From IMG/VR virus record IMGVR_UViG_3300035698_017305, positions 1 to 64,000 of that record: a DNA stretch of 64,000 bases, one strand, 5' to 3'. Shown here piece after piece: positions 17,832 through 52,464 of the stretch. A model generated the notes under the pieces. The model was not told where the DNA came from and searched no databases. It worked only from the letters and a program-made list of their open reading frames with translations. A program made the position numbers and the translations under genes. This DNA comes from a virus. How positions within the stretch are numbered: position 1 is the stretch's first letter; every line of letters begins with the position of its first letter.

Positions 17832-17906
17832 TGCCCGTGGAGGGATTTGAACCCCCGACACAGAGTACTAGAAGCTCCTGCTCTAACCAGACTGAGCTAC
17901 ACAGGC
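17832..17906 (-). tRNA. tRNA with CUA anticodon (amber suppressor-type)
   Basis: GCCTGTG/CACGGGC acceptor, canonical D and T arms, 5-nt variable loop; loop TT-CTA-GT at 32-38; C31.A39 mismatch. Confidence 0.75.
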
Positions 17907-17909
17907 TTA

Positions 17910-18033
17910 TGGCGGCGGGAGGAATTGAACCTCCAACCTTCCTAGTCCGTCCAGTGTTCCCAAATCAACAGCATTTGACTACGTGTTGTTTGAAGGACGC
18001 CAAGGATGCATCTACCAATTGAGCTACACCGCC
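17910..18033 (-). ncRNA. tRNA-like RNA with anticodon loop replaced by a long hairpin
   Basis: GGCGGTG/CGCCGCC acceptor, D arm, T arm GGAGG-TTCAATT-CCTCC; TCCT/AGGA stem extended by CGTCC/GGACG and CAAACAACA/TGTTGATTTG. Confidence 0.7.
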
Positions 18034-29149: not shown

Positions 29150-29221
29150 AGCGGATGATGGGAGTCGAACCCACAACCTTTAGCTTGGAAGGCTCCTGCT
29201 CTACCATTGAGCTACACCCGC
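29150..29221 (-). tRNA. trnG: tRNA-Gly(TCC), weak anticodon stem
   Basis: GCGGGTG acceptor; loop CTTCCAA; two G.A mismatches at top of stem. Confidence 0.85.
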
Positions 29222-29516
29222 AGATGACCGCTGGCAAGTTGTCTAAGGGGACGGTCAACTCCCTTTGTCCCACTTATACCCGGCATGCCTTTACCTGATG
29301 TTAGGTGGGATCAGAATAACGAAGTAGTTTACAGGACAAGGGGGAGAGAACGATGAGCCGTACACAGGATCAGAACATCGGGTAGACTCTTCAAAGAATC
29401 CCTAGTCGTCCTACGTCGAACACTCACCTGCCTCCTCTCCCCCTTGTGGTTCCTGAGGGTGACTATGATATCATTGTCGGACAGTTGAAGCTGACCTCGC
29501 CACCTTTTTCGTTGTA

Positions 29517-29588
29517 AGCGGACAGTGGGATTTGAACCCACGGCAACCTGCATGGCAAGCAGGTACTCTACCACTGAGTTATGCCCGC
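29517..29588 (-). tRNA. trnG: tRNA-Gly(GCC)
   Basis: CCTGC-TTGCCAT-GCAGG. Confidence 0.95.
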
Positions 29589-29589
29589 A

Positions 29590-30660
29590 CATAGGGAATG
29601 GAGTTACTCGGCAAGAAGCCTACACAGGTCTCGAATCTGGGATTCAGTATTCACCTTTTCGGGTACTGGGTTGTTCCCCTATCCCACTTGCCGCCAATCC
29701 GCGTGTCCCTATTCTGAGTACGATACCACAAGTGTGCTGTCACGCCAAAGAACATGTCATCTCACTCCTCGTGACCCGTCTACCCACATCCCTTTTGAGA
29801 AGCGAAGGAACGGATGTAGGACCGGTGTGTCTCCGGTAGGCGTGGCATGCCCGAGTTTAACCTAACTACGCAGCCGTAGTGTGGCCGGACATGTCAGCAG
29901 TACCCTTGCAGGAGCCCCTATCAGGCACACCCGGAACTCATTCGACAACCACGGCCAATGTGGCGGCAAATGACCGGACCTTTAGTTCTCTCCCTACGGG
30001 CCTGTGCGATCACAAAGGTTCACTCATTATAGGCAACCCTTCAACCCCACTGATACTAAGGTTGTTGGGAAGGGACGGTTAATTCCATCCTGGCTGCTTC
30101 TAAGCCCACCTCCTGATGGTATTCGTACCACAGACTGGGTTGTGAGTTTCCAGCTCACGTCCCGCCTGATTATTGATTAGTGACAGCATAGGTGTGCTGT
30201 TACGCCAAAGAGAAACCCCTTTCCTGTCGCTGAAGGTTACCTGTCCCTAGGAGACTGGTAGGGTTACTTCCACATTTACCCAAGCCTTGAAGTTCACATC
30301 CTGTTACCAGACACACTCCGTTCCTCGCTTGGTGCTTCGTCTCACTCCTTAGAAGCGACTTGACATCCAGAGATGTCAAGAAGGGACAGTTAATTCCGTC
30401 CTGGCTGCCTCTATGCCAACTTTCCTATGCTATCGAATGGGTAGGTGGTCTTTCAGATATTTTTGCATACTTTTTGACATTTAAACAGTTTGTCCATTTA
30501 CACATTACATCCTACACGCCTTACGTCTGCAACATAAACCTTATTAGGGTCGATAGTGTTTGGGATCATATCAATTCGCCTTCACCCAGGAGGCTAGCTA
30601 TACTTTCGGGTATAACGCCTACTCGTGCTTAGGCACGTCTTCTCTTACTCAACCCGCCTA
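29590..30660 (-). ncRNA. Large (~1 kb) structured ncRNA, GOLLD-like candidate, with two 23S-rRNA H43/H44-like domains
   Basis: No credible ORF; many stems; repeated GGC(T/A)TAGA(A/G)GCAGCCA...TTTGGCGT(A/G)ACAGCACAC; ends approximate. Confidence 0.7.
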
Positions 30661-30669
30661 CCCAAGGCG

Positions 30670-31206
30670 TTATAGTTCCATCTCTAGATAGTCCAGGTCA
30701 GCAGCTTCCAATGGGATTTCCAGTTCCAACGCATTGAGTTTAGACAATCTGGCCTGCAACTCTCTCTTCCTCTTCTTCAGCCCCTTGATCTGGAGCTTTA
30801 TACTGGCACGGCTGTCCAAAGGTCTCACCTCTACCTCGGTGATTACCTTCAGCCCGCCGTTTACTTCAACGCTGCTTCTCTTGGATGCTTCCGATCCTTC
30901 CAGAGCTACATCACATAAACCCAGTAATTCCTCAGTGTTCTTGATATCCCGCACAGTTTCACCCACGCCGTTGTTTGTGTTGAACGCGGCGAGGTGTGTG
31001 TTAACCAAATTGGACACTCGGAATGCGGCCTTGACCTTGGGCAGATATGTATCGAAGTCATCCATCTCCCCACGGCCTTCTACCACTACCCCATCGTTTA
31101 AGACCTCATGGTAGGCTACTCTGAATCTGGATTTCCCCAGCAAGGCGTTAACCACCTGCATAATTTCATTCTTGATAGGTAACCATTCGTTCACCGTTTT
31201 TCTCAT
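30670..31206 (-). CDS. Hypothetical coiled-coil protein
   Basis: 178 aa; SD AAGGAG. Confidence 0.7.
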   Translation of the reverse strand: MRKTVNEWLPIKNEIMQVVNALLGKSRFRVAYHEVLNDGVVVEGRGEMDDFDTYLPKVKAAFRVSNLVNTHLAAFNTNNGVGETVRDIKNTEELLGLCDVALEGSEASKRSSVEVNGGLKVITEVEVRPLDSRASIKLQIKGLKKRKRELQARLSKLNALELEIPLEAADLDYLEMEL

Positions 31207-31255
31207 ACGTTTTACTCCTTAATTGTACGTGGGCCCCTCTGCCTGTCAGAGTTAA

Positions 31256-31343
31256 GAGCATACCGGGATTCGAACCCAGACCAATGCCATAACAGGTAGG
31301 AATCGAACCTATGGGGGAAGCTAACCCGACCGACTCTTTGCTC
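31256..31343 (-). ncRNA. tRNA-like element with two T-loop hairpins and no anticodon arm
   Basis: GAGCA/TGCTC closing stem; TAGG-TTCGATT-CCTA and CTGGG-TTCGAAT-CCCGG. Confidence 0.55.
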
Positions 31344-31398
31344 AAGGCCCTTTATTTATAGTAACATTCGTCCTGTTAGTGTGCATGTTTTTGGTTAC

Positions 31399-31514
31399 TG
31401 TTGATGACCTGGGGCAGGATAGTTCTAGCCGCAGAGGGGCACCTAGATGCATCTAGATACTCCGTCCGTCCTTTCCGCCATGCTTGCAGAGGGCACTAAC
31501 ACAGGTCATCAACA
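31399..31514. other. Structured element closed by a perfect 13-bp inverted repeat
   Basis: tgttgatgacctg/caggtcatcaaca enclosing two GCAGAGGG(G)CAC copies and palindrome ctagatgcatctag. Confidence 0.6.
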
Positions 31515-31686
31515 ATATTGTTTCAGGCAGGAGGCAACCTACCGAGGGACTGTAACTCCCGAGGGTGTGCCAAGGGCGCAGGCGCTGCGGGATATCAGCT
31601 CCCTCAACTTTGTCTCCGGAGACTCTATTGAGTTTGCTCTAGACAGTATCATCTTAGGAATCGAACCTAAGCTCCATGCCCTTGTA

Positions 31687-32040
31687 TGGTGGAGGTGGCG
31701 GGAATCGAACCCGCGTCCGCGAACACTTACCGTGCTCATCTACGTGTGTGTCCAACCTTTCTATCCTGAAAGACATGGTTGGCAACGCTTTCAGGACCCC
31801 ACTGCCTTACCCGTGTGGGGAACACCGGGACGGGTTTTGTCAGCTATTACCCGATACTGACAACCGGGGAGTCTAAGGTGACGTTCTAGCCTACAGCGAC
31901 TCTCCGTAGGTAGACCGCGCTACTCTCTAAGCAGCGATGGGAAGTTGATTTTCGGCAACTATCTAGGTTTGTTCTGTAACGTAGAACATCCGACACGCAA
32001 AGCACGACTCAATTATTCCCGTCGAATCCAGGTCACCCCC
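31687..32040 (-). ncRNA. ssrA: tmRNA, tag (A)AENQLPIAA
   Basis: GGGGGTG..GGATTCGACGG 5' end; CACCTCC-A-CCA 3' end with G3.U70; ATAGTT resume context then GCC GAA AAT CAA CTT CCC ATC GCT GCT TAG. Confidence 0.95.
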
Positions 32041-32045
32041 ATAAG

Positions 32046-32118
32046 AGCTCGGGACGGGACTTGAACCCGCGATCACCAGATTGAAAGTCTGGTGGCTTAA
32101 CCACTGGCCTACCCGAGC
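32046..32118 (-). tRNA. trnE: tRNA-Glu(TTC)
   Basis: CCAGA-CTTTCAA-TCTGG. Confidence 0.95.
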
Positions 32119-32520: not shown

Positions 32521-33576
32521 TTATGCGGTAGTAAAGATCTGCTGAATCCTCTCATCTTCCCAGTATACTTTGGGTGGTTCCTTGCCAACCCACGGTGGGG
32601 GCAACTTTTCAAGATGAGAATGTCCTAGCAGAGCTTCATCATAAGGTCTGTCAAAGTCTAGACCTTCTAAGGCTCTCCATACAGGGAACAAATCCCGTAG
32701 GAATTGCTTGACCATGTAGCGTAGAGCCATGTTGTGCATGTGCCCCTTCCAACCCTTCTCATCCTTACGGGCGAGCAGGTCCTCCCTATGGGCAAGCCTG
32801 TAACGGTATTGATCATAGATTTGTCTGTAGCGTTTGTGACCACACTTAATCAGGTTAGCGGACATCACCCCGATCAACTTAGTTTTGAGCGTAGGGTTGA
32901 AGGTGATAGCCTTCTTTGTCTTCGTCTCACCCGCCGCATTAAGGTACTCCACATCAACCAAGTGCTCTGCTCTACGACTCCTGCCTAGCCCGTCCTTTGC
33001 AACGTCTAGACCTGCATACTTCCACAGACTGGATACGTGCCGTGCTTTGTGGATGTCAAACTCGGCGACTATGATACCACCCATGGCGGGGCCAATACCA
33101 CTGATACGTTCCAAGTATTCATTCCAGATAGGAAACTCTTCCAGCCCCATCCTGATAAGGCTTAGTTGTTCCCTTTCAACCCGTTCCAGCGCGACGTAGT
33201 GTTCCACTAGTTTGAGGGTGGCATAGTCTCCTATAACCCCGTCCCCTTCAAACTTGTGTGGTCTGATCCGTACAACGCCGTCTGTGATTCTCTTGTACGA
33301 CAGCTTCAGTGTCTTGAGGGTAGACTTGGCTTCCCCGCTGAGCTCATCCTTTTCAGCCTTCCCTGGGATCTTTCCGTTCTTGACCTTCCAGCTCTCTACC
33401 ACTCGGTTCCCCAGACCTATCCGTGTTTTCTGGATGTCCAGGTTCCCTCTGACCTGTGCTCTGAACCTCATTCGAGGTCCATCTGGGTCCACCACTGGGT
33501 CTGGAGGAGGAGCTTTTGCCTTCGGTTTGACCTTCGGTTTGACCTTGGATACCCTGGATTCTGCTGCTTCTCCCAT
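32521..33576 (-). CDS. IS110/IS116-like (Nop-related) protein lacking a RuvC-like DEDD domain
   Basis: FPIWNEYLERISGIGPAMGG..VAEF...SSLWKYAGL...A.R...K.FL; N-terminus is Pro/Lys low complexity. Confidence 0.7.
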   Translation of the reverse strand: MGEAAESRVSKVKPKVKPKAKAPPPDPVVDPDGPRMRFRAQVRGNLDIQKTRIGLGNRVVESWKVKNGKIPGKAEKDELSGEAKSTLKTLKLSYKRITDGVVRIRPHKFEGDGVIGDYATLKLVEHYVALERVEREQLSLIRMGLEEFPIWNEYLERISGIGPAMGGIIVAEFDIHKARHVSSLWKYAGLDVAKDGLGRSRRAEHLVDVEYLNAAGETKTKKAITFNPTLKTKLIGVMSANLIKCGHKRYRQIYDQYRYRLAHREDLLARKDEKGWKGHMHNMALRYMVKQFLRDLFPVWRALEGLDFDRPYDEALLGHSHLEKLPPPWVGKEPPKVYWEDERIQQIFTTA

Positions 33577-37950: not shown

Positions 37951-38060
37951 GTTTTCTCCTTCTTTCCCAGGTATGAATTGGGGTTTACGTTGACCCACTT
38001 ATGGCAGGCTTTTTCTTATATTCTCTACATGCTATACTCGGGGCGGAGGGTTATAATTCA

Positions 38061-40916
38061 ATGATTTATGTTCTCACATCTCGCCCTAGCGGTAAGGGGT
38101 GCAAGGCTATGCTCCAACGGGGTAAGTCTTTAGGCATTCCCATCAAAGTCATTACAGGCAACACCGCAATGAGTCCAGGTGACGTGGTATTTGTATACGA
38201 AGCCAAGAAGCCAGCACTCAACACTATCAAGAACAGAACTGATATCACTGTAGTTAATGGTGTTAGGTACAACAAGCAGGGCCAGTATAAGATTCTTGCC
38301 CCGGGCGGTGTACCTGTACCTAACTGGGCTCTGTTAAAGCCGGGCCAGAAAAACCGTTTCGATACAGTGGCTTTCCCCGCTATCATGAAACCCAACGTCG
38401 GGGGATACGCCCGTGGGGTTAAGCTGGTACCCTCAGCAGATAAGGCTAAGTCTATAAGGCTCAAGGAGAATATGATTCTCCAAGAGTATGTGGACTGTAA
38501 GGGGGAGTGTACCAGAGTCCTGATGGTTGGGGACGACCCAGCTATTGTTGTGACCAGGATAGCGCATGATGGGTACATAGCGGCATACGACTTTGGTCGG
38601 AAAGGTAAGTTGGAGTTCACACCCCTGACGGACAAAGAGCTGGAGATATGTATAAAGGCGTGTAAGCTTCTAAAGATCGAGATTGGTGGGGTAGATATCA
38701 TCCGGGACTCCAAAACAGGAGAGCCCTATATACTGGAGGTGAATCACTTCGCAGTACCCTTCTACCTCAAAGAGATGTATAAAGACGCTACAGATACTAT
38801 ATTGAGGTATCTACACAAATTGGAAAAGCCGAGAACTACCAATATCAAAAGGACGAAGGCCGTGCCTACTAAAACCTCTATCAAACCAGCTAAGCCGAGA
38901 GTGCTGTGGATCGTAGATAAGCCAGGGTGGTCCCATGACAACAAGACTGAGGCTATCACCCGTCAATTATCTGATGAGTTTGACTTTGATAAACAGTATT
39001 TGTACCAGTCAGGCAATGTCTACGACTACTCTAAGTACTCACACGTACACATCTCACTGTGGTATTGGCCCGTTCAGCATAAGGACTTCCCAAGACCCCC
39101 CGCAGACATCACTACAACTACCATCAGTAGCTGGCAGTCCTGGGAGAAGTATGGGAGGGCCAAGACAGCGGCTCATGTGAAACATCTGTATGGTGGAGCT
39201 GTTTGTGTGAACCGAGAGCTGTTTAATGAATTCTCTCCTATCATACCTAGGACCTACCACTGCCCCAATGGGGTAGATACCGAAATGTTTACACCAGGAC
39301 CCGCCACCTCAAACCCAAAGTTCACGGTAGGGTTTGCCGGTAACCCCTGGATGCACAAGGGGCGCAAGAAGTACTTCAAGCTGATTAAACCTGCGTTGGA
39401 CTCTTTGAAGAACGTGACTCTACGCACCGCTCTGGGTAAGTACCCATACAAGGACATAAAGCCTCATGCTGAGATGCCCGCGTTTTACCAATCACTGGAT
39501 GCTTACGTCCATGCCGCTGGGGGCAAGTGGGATACAGCCCCTAACCCAGTGTTGGAGGCCGCTGCCTGTGGAATCCCGATAATTATCTCCCCAGTGGGTG
39601 ATTGGAAAGAGTTGTTTGTGGATGGTGAAACCGCGTTGGTGCTGCCTACTGACCCCAATCCTAAGGATATAGTTAATGCTATCAATAGGTTAGCTGGGGA
39701 TAAGAAGCTACAGCGCAAGCTAGCTATTGGGGCTAGGTTCGTAGCAGAGAAGCTTAGCTGGAGTGGGTTGGCTGAGAAGTATAGAAAAGTGTTTAAGGCG
39801 CACAACAGGCCACGGGGAGTTATAAAACCATCCAAGACTAGAACAGGGCTATCCTTAAAGGACAGGTTGGGTAGAAGGGATGCTATGAAGACAACTCTAC
39901 CCACGTTAAATAGTAAGATTAAGAAGTCCCCCAAGGCACAGGTCATAAAATCAAAACCACGCATAGGATTGCTAGTTGATTATAAAGGGTGGGCCTGGGA
40001 TATCAATGCCCATAACATAGCTAAGCACCTATCTCAGTACTACGACTTTGACATATACTATACATCCGGTGGGGGTGGTGGTCGAATACTGTTCCCCGGA
40101 CTAGACCTAGTGCTGTGTTTCAGAATAGATGAGACGCAACGACGAGGTGGTTACGTTAGAAGGATACCTGCCCATAAAAGGTTAGCATCCATATCCAGTT
40201 TTACCAACAAGGTGGCCAAACGGATACTGTCTGATAACAAGGAAGGGGCAAAGTTCCTACGTAACAGTTATGCTGGGGTGGGGGCTGTGTCCAGGGAACT
40301 CGCCGACTTCATTAAACCCTACCACAGACGCGTATACTACATCCCTAGGGGGGTTGAGACAGACCATTTCTTACAGGCTCCTAGGCCAAACGGTAAGAAG
40401 CTAGTGGTGGGTTGGGTAGGGACCCGGGACAGGGCCAACAAAGTGTACCCAGCATTTGAATTAGCTAAGAAGCATCTCGGTGACAAGTTCATTTGGTCTC
40501 CCAGGACAGAGAGTAGGGGGAACCCGGGCAGTCCCAAGTTGACCCATGAGGATATGGCCACCTACTACAGTAAGCTGGATGTGCTAGTTCACACAGCGTG
40601 CCATGACGGCACTCCTAACCCTATCTTTGAAGCTGCCTCATCTGGAGTCTGCATCGTTAGCACCCCGGTCGGGTCAGCCCAGGAGTTTATGCGGGATGGG
40701 GTTAACTGTCTAAAGCTAGAAAATGGGGGCAAGAGGGACATCGCAAGGTCTTTGGTAACTGCGTTAGAAAAGCTAGATGGCAACAGAGAACTAGTTGATA
40801 GGTTCGGTAGGACTGCCTCCAGAGAGATGAGAGATAATTGGGACTGGGAGAAGATCATACCGTTGTACAAACGGATGTTCGACCAATCCCTAACCCGAAG
40901 AAAGGGAGTAAGGTAA
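38061..40916 (+). CDS. RimK-like ATP-grasp + two GT4-type glycosyltransferase domains
   Basis: IMKP..G....GV, LQEY, GGVD, LEVN; two (W/G)..PNP..EAA..G motifs; start placed at MIYVL. Confidence 0.85.
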   Translation: MIYVLTSRPSGKGCKAMLQRGKSLGIPIKVITGNTAMSPGDVVFVYEAKKPALNTIKNRTDITVVNGVRYNKQGQYKILAPGGVPVPNWALLKPGQKNRFDTVAFPAIMKPNVGGYARGVKLVPSADKAKSIRLKENMILQEYVDCKGECTRVLMVGDDPAIVVTRIAHDGYIAAYDFGRKGKLEFTPLTDKELEICIKACKLLKIEIGGVDIIRDSKTGEPYILEVNHFAVPFYLKEMYKDATDTILRYLHKLEKPRTTNIKRTKAVPTKTSIKPAKPRVLWIVDKPGWSHDNKTEAITRQLSDEFDFDKQYLYQSGNVYDYSKYSHVHISLWYWPVQHKDFPRPPADITTTTISSWQSWEKYGRAKTAAHVKHLYGGAVCVNRELFNEFSPIIPRTYHCPNGVDTEMFTPGPATSNPKFTVGFAGNPWMHKGRKKYFKLIKPALDSLKNVTLRTALGKYPYKDIKPHAEMPAFYQSLDAYVHAAGGKWDTAPNPVLEAAACGIPIIISPVGDWKELFVDGETALVLPTDPNPKDIVNAINRLAGDKKLQRKLAIGARFVAEKLSWSGLAEKYRKVFKAHNRPRGVIKPSKTRTGLSLKDRLGRRDAMKTTLPTLNSKIKKSPKAQVIKSKPRIGLLVDYKGWAWDINAHNIAKHLSQYYDFDIYYTSGGGGGRILFPGLDLVLCFRIDETQRRGGYVRRIPAHKRLASISSFTNKVAKRILSDNKEGAKFLRNSYAGVGAVSRELADFIKPYHRRVYYIPRGVETDHFLQAPRPNGKKLVVGWVGTRDRANKVYPAFELAKKHLGDKFIWSPRTESRGNPGSPKLTHEDMATYYSKLDVLVHTACHDGTPNPIFEAASSGVCIVSTPVGSAQEFMRDGVNCLKLENGGKRDIARSLVTALEKLDGNRELVDRFGRTASREMRDNWDWEKIIPLYKRMFDQSLTRRKGVR

Positions 40917-52334: not shown

Positions 52335-52464
52335 CGGCTAGCTAGTCGAGAGACCCATATTAGGTACACCGAGGTGGAATTGAACCACCGACTTTTTGCT
52401 TAATAGGCAAATGCTCTATCCAACTGAGCTATTGGTATGTATGGCCTAACTGTAGGGCTAACCG
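52335..52464 (-). ncRNA. Y-RNA-like unit 5: unpermuted Asn-like cloverleaf (ATT) inside scaffold
   Basis: ATACCAA/TCGGTGT-ACCT; GCTC-AGTTGGATA-GAGC; TTTGC-CTATTAA-GCAAA; GGTGG-TTCAATT-CCACC. Confidence 0.85.

Follow-up and report, generated by a model that had tools for sequence, protein, structure and literature searches.

Two tandem RNA domains resembling the GTPase-associated centre of 23S rRNA in a phage genome

A gap without genes on the minus strand of the virus record IMGVR_UViG_3300035698_017305 (IMG/VR) encodes two tandem RNA domains, here called A and B, which reproduce the uL11-binding GTPase-associated centre (GAC) of 23S ribosomal RNA (rRNA) with large insertions. The stretch that was analysed, referred to below as the window, comprises the first 64 kb of this 132.8-kb record, which is estimated to be 71% complete, and the gap spans 1081 nucleotides (nt) of it, from 29589 to 30669, as delimited from the lists of open reading frames (ORFs). 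The uL11-binding domain is among the best-studied of RNA folds, being both the docking site of the translation GTPases and the target of the thiopeptide antibiotics. The RNA described here is a tandem and uncommonly elaborate representative of a family of phage RNAs that appears to have escaped description, as a literature search found no account of such a phage RNA. There is about an even chance that these two rebuilt centres act together off the ribosome as a two-site decoy, the most likely quarry of which would be the host protein uL11.

Two tandem copies of a GAC-like domain

The first indication of the two copies comes from short motifs. On the minus strand, the 15-mer GGCTTAGAAGCAGCC, typical of helix 43 (H43), is found at 30092-30106 without mismatch and at 30403-30417 with two mismatches, where 0.08 matches per window would be expected by chance and none of 100 shuffled sequences gave two. 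Similarly, the H44-like 15-mer GGCGTAACAGCACAC occurs at 30192-30206 without mismatch and at 29732-29746 with one (0.10 expected by chance). The first-pass annotation of this DNA had described the segment 30091-30115 as nearly identical to H43 of 23S rRNA, and 23 of its 25 positions indeed agree with real Salmonella 23S rRNA (locus L102). Repeats of 54 nt (81% identity) and of 30 nt (83%) also link the two copies.

Stronger evidence is provided by a covariance model, R1, which was built from 20 family members on other contigs and includes none from the window. Domain A is matched end to end, over model positions 1-166, with 85.1 bits (E = 6e-28), and domain B is matched over the same positions with 63.8 bits (E = 1e-20), or 55.5 bits with the filters off. 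The true GAC of Salmonella 23S rRNA (L102:94-164) is likewise recognised end to end by this model, with 50.1 bits (E = 6e-16). A search with R1 detected no further copies in the 132.8-kb record.

The alignment allows both domains to be read against the bacterial GAC, which consists of the top of H42, H43 and H44 and corresponds to the 58-nt fragment that binds uL11 and thiostrepton (1051-1108 in Escherichia coli, whose numbering is used throughout). The helices follow in the same order (Table 1), and both domains carry the signature of the centre: the pairs U1060-A1088 and 1082-1086, the bases G1071 and C1072, and the pairs 1091-1100 and 1092-1099, with the H44 hairpin G1091-C1100 / C1092-G1099 / G1093-A1098 retained. 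The H43 loop of domain B is that of the bacterial rRNA, and the loop of domain A, AUAGAGGCA, differs from the bacterial one by U1065A and A1070G. In the junction of domain A (CUUCUAAGGAGUG), U1060 and A1088 are kept and the pair 1082-1086 is C-G; in that of domain B (CCUAUAAUGAGUG), the pair 1082-1086 is A-U and the pair 1058-1080 is G-C. According to the R1 alignment, the closing helix of domain A comprises eight Watson-Crick pairs.

There are also clear differences from the ribosomal original. Unlike the 23S GAC, the window domains stand alone, each with its own closing helix of free sequence; the lower part of H42, which binds L10 on the ribosome, is not copied, since below the pair 1054-1105 the helix consists of free sequence with no conserved element. 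A helix of 134 nt (domain A) or 272 nt (domain B) is inserted between U1090 and G1091, so that the H44-like part follows only after large insertions, as the first-pass annotation had held, and a two-hairpin module is inserted after A1077. The domains furthermore read U1101A and U1097C, are phage-encoded among tRNA genes, and bear no similarity to rRNA beyond these roughly 55 nt.

Together, the R1 matches and the covariation described below show that each domain is self-closed and rebuilds the GAC, with the top of H42, H43 and its 1065-1073 loop, the tertiary pairs and the H44 hairpin. They also show that two sites of this fold, one following A1077 in H43 and the other lying between U1090 and G1091 of H44, have tolerated the insertion of extra structure. 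The earlier recognition of two tandem uL11-binding domains with large insertions is thereby borne out, and the limits then given for the two copies lie within 8 nt of the two full-length matches.

The module in H43 bears on the origin of the two copies. In domain A it is formed by a first hairpin at 30384-30401 with the loop AAUUAA and a second at 30361-30378, both of which are present in the minimum free energy (MFE) and centroid folds, and it appears in the R1 alignment as a 45-nt insertion. The first hairpin is identical between the copies at 16 of 18 positions and has the AAUUAA loop in both. It had been noted before that this shared hairpin keeps its pairing, which is correct, as both differences preserve pairing through wobbles; the changes (GGACGG..CUGUCC versus GGAUGG..CCGUCC, that is, C-G to U-G and G-U to G-C) are nevertheless one-sided rather than double compensations. 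Two-sided compensations between the copies are found instead at 1058-1080 (A-U versus G-C), at 1082-1086 (C-G versus A-U) and in the closing helices. Since no other member of the family contains the H43 module, the two copies are each other's nearest relatives, which points to their having arisen by duplication within this phage lineage. The motif of the first hairpin was found nowhere else in IMG/VR or in metagenome contigs, a blastn search of 50,697 phage records gave no close relatives of the locus, and a local BLAST search against about 100 family loci matched the core blocks only.

A decayed third 5′ half lies inside the H44 insert of domain B. Taken alone with the 3′ block (29718-29799), it still scores 27.2 bits against R1, and two repeats (D5 and D6) tie it to the junction of domain A. 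This inner copy would be the relic of a further duplication, and its sequence indicates that the locus has undergone repeated turnover. The tandem arrangement illustrates which positions of the fold tolerate large insertions, and also that copy number is itself subject to turnover. Tandem copies are rare: among the roughly 100 loci fetched, only one other (L054) has two full copies, and these, at 1120-1239 and 2175-2368 of that locus, are about 0.9 kb apart and not in tandem.

Two smaller observations concern the folds of the copies. The AAUUAA loops of the two first hairpins (30384-30401 and 30073-30090, minus strand) have a self-complementary AAUU core, and we can only speculate that they could kiss, within one RNA or between RNAs. 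In the MFE fold, the junction of domain A (30343-30358, minus strand) adopts a local hairpin, UCGCUUC UAA GGAGUGA, in competition with the GAC fold, an alternative that is not available to domain B.

A family of GAC-like RNAs in phages

The family was gathered by searching IMG/VR for an exact H44-like 17-mer, which returned 98 contigs. When the two window copies are added to these 98 loci, 93 of the 100 occurrences of the H44-like motif have an H43 motif 75-390 nt upstream. The family is present in at least 90 IMG/VR contigs and, in addition, in the cultured Pseudomonas phage pf16. Two of the four IMG/VR matches to GGCWTAGARGCAGCCAGG (L100 and L101) were rejected as chance matches in coding DNA. 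The IMG/VR family loci matched no Rfam family other than tRNA.

In order to assess the shared fold, 29 non-redundant members were aligned and the secondary structure of the GAC was written onto the alignment. In this alignment 79.8% of the cells pair, and the covariation score is 0.421, as compared with 0.146 in shuffled alignments (none of 500 reached the observed score) and at most 0.176 when the partners were slid. Variation is by compensated changes: in the closing helix, the H42 pair 1054-1105 is GC in 17 members and AU in 12; in the lower stem of H43, the pair 1058-1080 occurs as four pair types; and at the base of the inserted helix three pair types are seen. Even the lone tertiary pair 1082-1086 covaries (UA in 16 members, AU in 4, CG in 3). 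Conversely, U1060-A1088 and positions 1069 and 1071-1073 are kept in all 29 members, and A1067 in 24.

The site of the variable H44 insert of the family was mapped to the position between U1090 and G1091 by comparison with a Staphylococcus 23S fragment reading AAAGAGUGCGUAAUAGCUCAC, and at least 90 unrelated contigs carry their insert there. At precisely this site, which in the 5′ strand of H44 is bordered by GAGU and UUUGGCG, both window domains have their extra helix. Together with the full-length R1 match, a closing helix of their own flanking 1055/1104 and a same-strand tRNA setting, this places both domains within the family. The core blocks, the insert site and the tRNA-array setting all match those of the relatives in IMG/VR and pf16, a family that is absent from Rfam 15. 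The window differs from these relatives in its tandem copies and in the H43 two-hairpin module, which is unique to this phage, and the insert of domain B is both the largest and the most unusual, and holds the relic inner copy in addition.

The two H44 inserts are of different kinds. That of domain A belongs to a recurrent class, which opens with GAGUGRRRCGAAGYRCC, contains a GGAAGUAA-type element and could be aligned with nine to ten other phage members; this CGAAG-type class is common to pf16 and about ten other members. The insert sequence of domain B matched none of the other family members fetched. An informal reading by eye of the H44 insert of the family (ACGAAG..ACC, GAA) as a sarcin-ricin loop or kink-turn mimic was rejected, as the non-canonical pairs required for either are not kept between members.

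When another member was used as a BLAST query, annotated 23S rRNA was retrieved at 94-97% identity over the 5′ arm. This arm was also found by BLAST in the cultured Pseudomonas phages pf16 and Astolliot, Aeromonas phage 4_4572, Cronobacter phage GAP32, Pectobacterium phage CBB, Xanthomonas phage XacN1, Serratia phage BF and Paenibacillus phage Pd_22F. The pf16 member (L108:1497-1694; KU873925.1 about 29408-29605, minus strand) scores 97.4 bits, is not annotated and is flanked by tRNA-Asn and tRNA-Pro; its H44 insert is of the class seen in domain A, and its H44 loop is a variant one, GCGUAGAAGC. As cultured phages with a member exist, pf16 on Pseudomonas putida being one example, an experimental model is ready to hand.

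Outside phages the family is scarce. In 596 Gb of prokaryote genomes the 17-mer gave 63 matches, which is about the chance level, and only 14 of these are full-length members, so that the family is strongly enriched in phages. All 14 lie on contigs of metagenome-assembled genomes (L121, L166, L154, L144 and ten others), in bins of very different phyla, one of them archaeal. These are probably phage or mobile-element contigs rather than chromosomal genes.

With regard to genomic context, a tRNA gene lies within 300 nt of 44 of 83 elements, always on the same strand, and within 50 nt of 29. The neighbourhood of the element holds no recurring protein family in a comparison of 64 non-redundant groups, and this points to a partner that comes from the host or from another part of the phage genome.

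Possible functions of the phage RNA

If the RNA is a decoy, it would be transcribed together with the neighbouring genes for transfer-messenger RNA (tmRNA) and tRNAs, and away from the ribosome it would present a two-site imitation of the GAC, capturing a host component that recognises this shape. The ribosomal protein uL11 would be the most likely such component, and with its capture the function of the stalk base, or signalling that depends on uL11, would be altered in the infected cell. uL11 is favoured because its C-terminal domain alone binds the isolated 58-nt rRNA fragment, where it recognises the minor groove of the 1067 stem, for the most part by contacting the backbone (PMC2175356; PMC1802607). 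L11 also contacts the U1060-A1088 pair, and the E. coli protein binds even the yeast version of the domain (PMC2175356). Furthermore, the substitution U1061A is used in the laboratory to give the isolated rRNA fragment a more stable tertiary fold (PMC1802607), and this base is common in the phage family, with A at position 1061 in 9-10 of the 29 aligned members. Titration of uL11 by the RNA is plausible. The L10-L12 stalk is a less likely object of titration, as the closing helix below 1054-1105/1055-1104 is plain free sequence.

The principle of an off-ribosome RNA that imitates the binding site of a protein on rRNA is shared with the leaders of ribosomal protein operons, such as the L10 leader. 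Those leaders, however, are cis-regulatory parts of mRNAs, whereas the window element is not upstream of a ribosomal protein gene, and it copies the uL11 site far more literally than they do. A ribosomal protein leader mimic was considered and rejected, as no Rfam leader matched and the gap is flanked by an ORF of no assigned family and by tRNA-Gly.

Several observations weigh against a uL11 decoy. In both domains the two-hairpin module sits in the 3′ strand of H43, which is the stem read by the C-terminal domain of L11, and uL11 binding could therefore be weakened in this particular phage. The loops are altered as well, by the two substitutions of domain A noted above and by A1095G in domain B. 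Nearest-neighbour MFE folds recover the closing helices and local hairpins but miss the H43/H44 core, and forcing this core upon domain A costs about 21 kcal/mol; folds that depend on tertiary contacts and ions are expected to be missed in this way, and the miss provides no positive evidence for such a fold. The invariance of the H44 3′ block across the family is partly built in by the exact 17-mer pattern used to gather it, and the pf16 member demonstrates that this block can vary. Finally, uL11 is abundant and mostly ribosome-bound, so that effective titration would need a very abundant RNA.

That the family constitutes a new class of phage takeover or counter-defence agent, which either sequesters uL11 or draws off host toxins or factors directed at the GAC, is a proposition to which we would give slightly less than even weight. 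Should it be true, many phage lineages carry a free-standing copy of a ribosomal functional centre, doubled in the present phage. Sequestration of uL11 would then strip new ribosomes of this protein or blunt the uL11-dependent activation of RelA, and the conserved H44 inserts would add a second function. The RNA would moreover be a natural decoy of a ribosomal active site, a kind of interplay between phage and host of which the literature search found no instance.

A different target for the same fold is an unlikely alternative, though one to be taken into account. In this case an enzyme or toxin directed at the GAC, such as an ADP-ribosyltransferase, nuclease or methyltransferase of bacterial conflict or anti-phage defence, would be drawn off by the RNA as a decoy or sponge, and the ribosomes that the phage needs would be spared. 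The uL11-binding domain is in fact the target of at least one bacterial toxin, Tre23 of a type VI secretion system, which ADP-ribosylates H44 at 1095-1098 and blocks EF-G (PMC8661411). The strong conservation of the exposed H43 and H44 loops in the family, the location of the element within tRNA arrays and the lack of a phage-encoded partner nearby would all suit such a role. On the other hand, no anti-phage system directed at the GAC is known to us, the fold itself also depends on many of the conserved loop bases, and domain B has a G at 1095.

It is improbable that the RNA instead binds a translation GTPase or stringent factor (EF-G, the EF-Tu ternary complex, IF2, RF3 or RelA) or the elbow of tRNA, and thereby tunes translation or (p)ppGpp signalling directly. 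While these factors dock, in the ribosome, at the GAC together with uL11 (PMC2175356; PMC8661411), and while this phage invests heavily in parts for translation, with 16 tRNA genes and a tmRNA in the window, their binding there further requires the L7/L12 stalk and the sarcin-ricin loop, neither of which is copied here. In addition, no homologue of L11, L12 or RelA/SpoT was found in the 132.8 kb.

We give little credence to a cis-acting module of the tRNA/tmRNA transcript, serving for example its processing or stability, in which the likeness to rRNA is inherited and has no function in trans. The position of the elements on the same strand as the tRNAs, often at less than 50 nt from them, is what such a module would lead one to expect. 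Yet roughly one member in two lacks a tRNA within 300 nt, and a processing element need not keep the GAC-specific tertiary pairs and loop bases across very different phages.

The two remaining possibilities can be judged by searches with Rfam 15 (4227 families, which should include GOLLD and ROOL), carried out over the whole window at the gathering score and over 29200-31700 at E ≤ 10. At the gathering score only tRNAs and the tmRNA were detected in the window, and at E ≤ 10 nothing relevant was found in 29200-31700, where GOLLD, ROOL, large subunit (LSU) rRNA and the ribosomal protein leaders were all without a match. The absence of LSU rRNA carries weight because the same library detects real 23S pieces: with the LSU model (RF02541), a control fragment of 156 nt reaches 154 bits and one of 234 nt reaches 202 bits. 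A bacterial LSU rRNA gene or fragment was therefore rejected. For the same reason, a captured and decaying piece of host 23S rRNA without function is very hard to credit, despite the 23 of 25 identical positions in the H43 block with enterobacterial 23S; each domain, furthermore, has its own closing helix with compensated changes, and one insert site is common to at least 90 unrelated contigs. The membership in the GOLLD class of large ornate RNAs that the first-pass annotation had proposed, like membership in the ROOL class, is contradicted and almost certainly wrong, for although both the window RNA and these RNAs are large, structured and non-coding and GOLLD and ROOL occur in phages and prophages, often next to tRNA genes (PMC12286853), no covariance model among the 4227 families matches apart from tRNA and tmRNA, and the RNA is built from two GAC-like domains.

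Genomic setting of the locus

The features of the gap and its surroundings are listed in Table 1. All lie on the minus strand, with the tmRNA and tRNA-Glu upstream of the domains and tRNA-Gly 130 nt downstream. In total, the window holds 16 tRNA genes and one tmRNA.

Table 1. Positions of the GAC-like domains, their parts and the neighbouring features in the window, in the 5′ to 3′ direction of the RNA
Feature	Positions	Strand	Remarks
tRNA-Glu	32045-32118	-	upstream of the gap
tmRNA	31687-32040	-	Rfam, 126 bits; tag peptide AENQLPIAA; between tRNA-Glu and the small ORFs
Small ORFs	between the tmRNA and ORF 30670-31206	-	
ORF, 178 aa	30670-31206	-	borders the gap upstream
5′ leader	30432-30669	-	between the stop of ORF 30670-31206 and domain A; no ORF; closed predicted fold
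Domain A	30178-30431	-	full GAC-like domain (closing helix, H43, junction, H44 with insert); R1
Domain A, closing helix (top of H42)	30424-30431 with 30185-30192	-	AGCAUAGG pairs with CCUAUGCU
Domain A, H43	30402-30423	-	equivalents of E. coli 1056-1077
Domain A, two-hairpin module	30361-30401	-	in the H43 3′ strand, after A1077
Domain A, H43 3′ strand, H43/H44 junction (J43/44) and start of H44	30343-30356	-	GCUUCUAAGGAGUG; about 1078-1091
Domain A, H44 insert, 134 nt	30210-30343	-	base stem GAGA/UCUC (R1 alignment)
Domain A, H44 3′ part	30192-30209	-	UUUG + GCGUAACAGCACAC; 1091-1100 hairpin, then 1101-1104
Linker between the domains	30123-30177	-	one predicted hairpin
Domain B	29718-30120	-	full GAC-like domain with very large H44 insert; R1
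Domain B, closing helix, 5′ strand	30112-30122	-	pairs with 29723-29732; about 10 pairs, one bulge
Domain B, H43	30091-30111	-	loop UUAGAAGCA, identical to bacterial 23S
Domain B, two-hairpin module	30034-30090	-	in the H43 3′ strand; first hairpin 30073-30090, second 30034-30067
Domain B, H43 3′ strand, J43/44 and start of H44	30021-30034	-	GCCUAUAAUGAGUG
Domain B, H44 insert, 272 nt	29750-30021	-	base stem GAAC/GUUC
Domain B, decayed inner 5′-half copy within the insert	29757-29799	-	GGGAUGUGGG..., then ..GAGGAGUG; H43 loop lost
Domain B, H44 3′ part	29732-29749	-	UUUG + GCGUGACAGCACAC; position 1095 is G
3′ trailer	29589-29717	-	from domain B to tRNA-Gly(GCC)
tRNA-Gly(GCC)	29517-29588	-	Rfam, 70.4 bits, and ARAGORN; next gene downstream of the gap

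The gap contains no long open frame, either in the standard code or with any single stop codon recoded. A coding region under another genetic code was accordingly rejected, the longest stop-free runs with any stop recoded being 113-146 codons on the opposite strand. The 178-aa ORF upstream has no Pfam or PHROG match, and neither of the two ORFs flanking the gap has relatives in IMG/VR.

The segments around the domains differ in their predicted structure. The leader folds better than its shuffles (z = -2.5), as does the region of the linker (30121-30185, -18.1 kcal/mol, z = -2.1), and the fold of the trailer is no better than that of its shuffles (z = -0.95). The leader matched neither R1 nor Rfam, and the trailer gave no match to Rfam, tRNA or R1. 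Within the leader, 75% of the bases at 30460-30499 are A or T. This patch (30460-30500) might be a candidate promoter by its composition; it is not a repeated motif, and a scan for sigma-70 promoters and intrinsic terminators found none on the RNA strand within the gap.

The phage tmRNA directly follows tRNA-Glu (31687-32118, minus strand) at about 1 kb upstream of the GAC-like domains. Just upstream of this pair, a 351-aa ORF (32521-33576, minus strand) matches the PHROG transposase family phrog_4285 (E = 9e-31).

Elsewhere in the window, a tRNA with the amber anticodon CUA, labelled tRNA-Pyl by ARAGORN, was predicted at 17832-18033 (minus strand), and beside it a 124-nt segment (17910-18033, minus strand) is matched by the Rfam tRNA model with 39.9 bits, which would imply a long insert. 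The phage nonetheless seems to keep to the standard code, since TAG terminates 9 of its 41 long ORFs in the window. ARAGORN also predicts a tRNA-Asn with the unusual anticodon AUU at 52363-52438 (minus strand). Finally, the plus strand encodes at 38001-40916 a protein of 971 aa that combines an ATP-grasp (RimK-like) domain with a group-1 glycosyltransferase domain.

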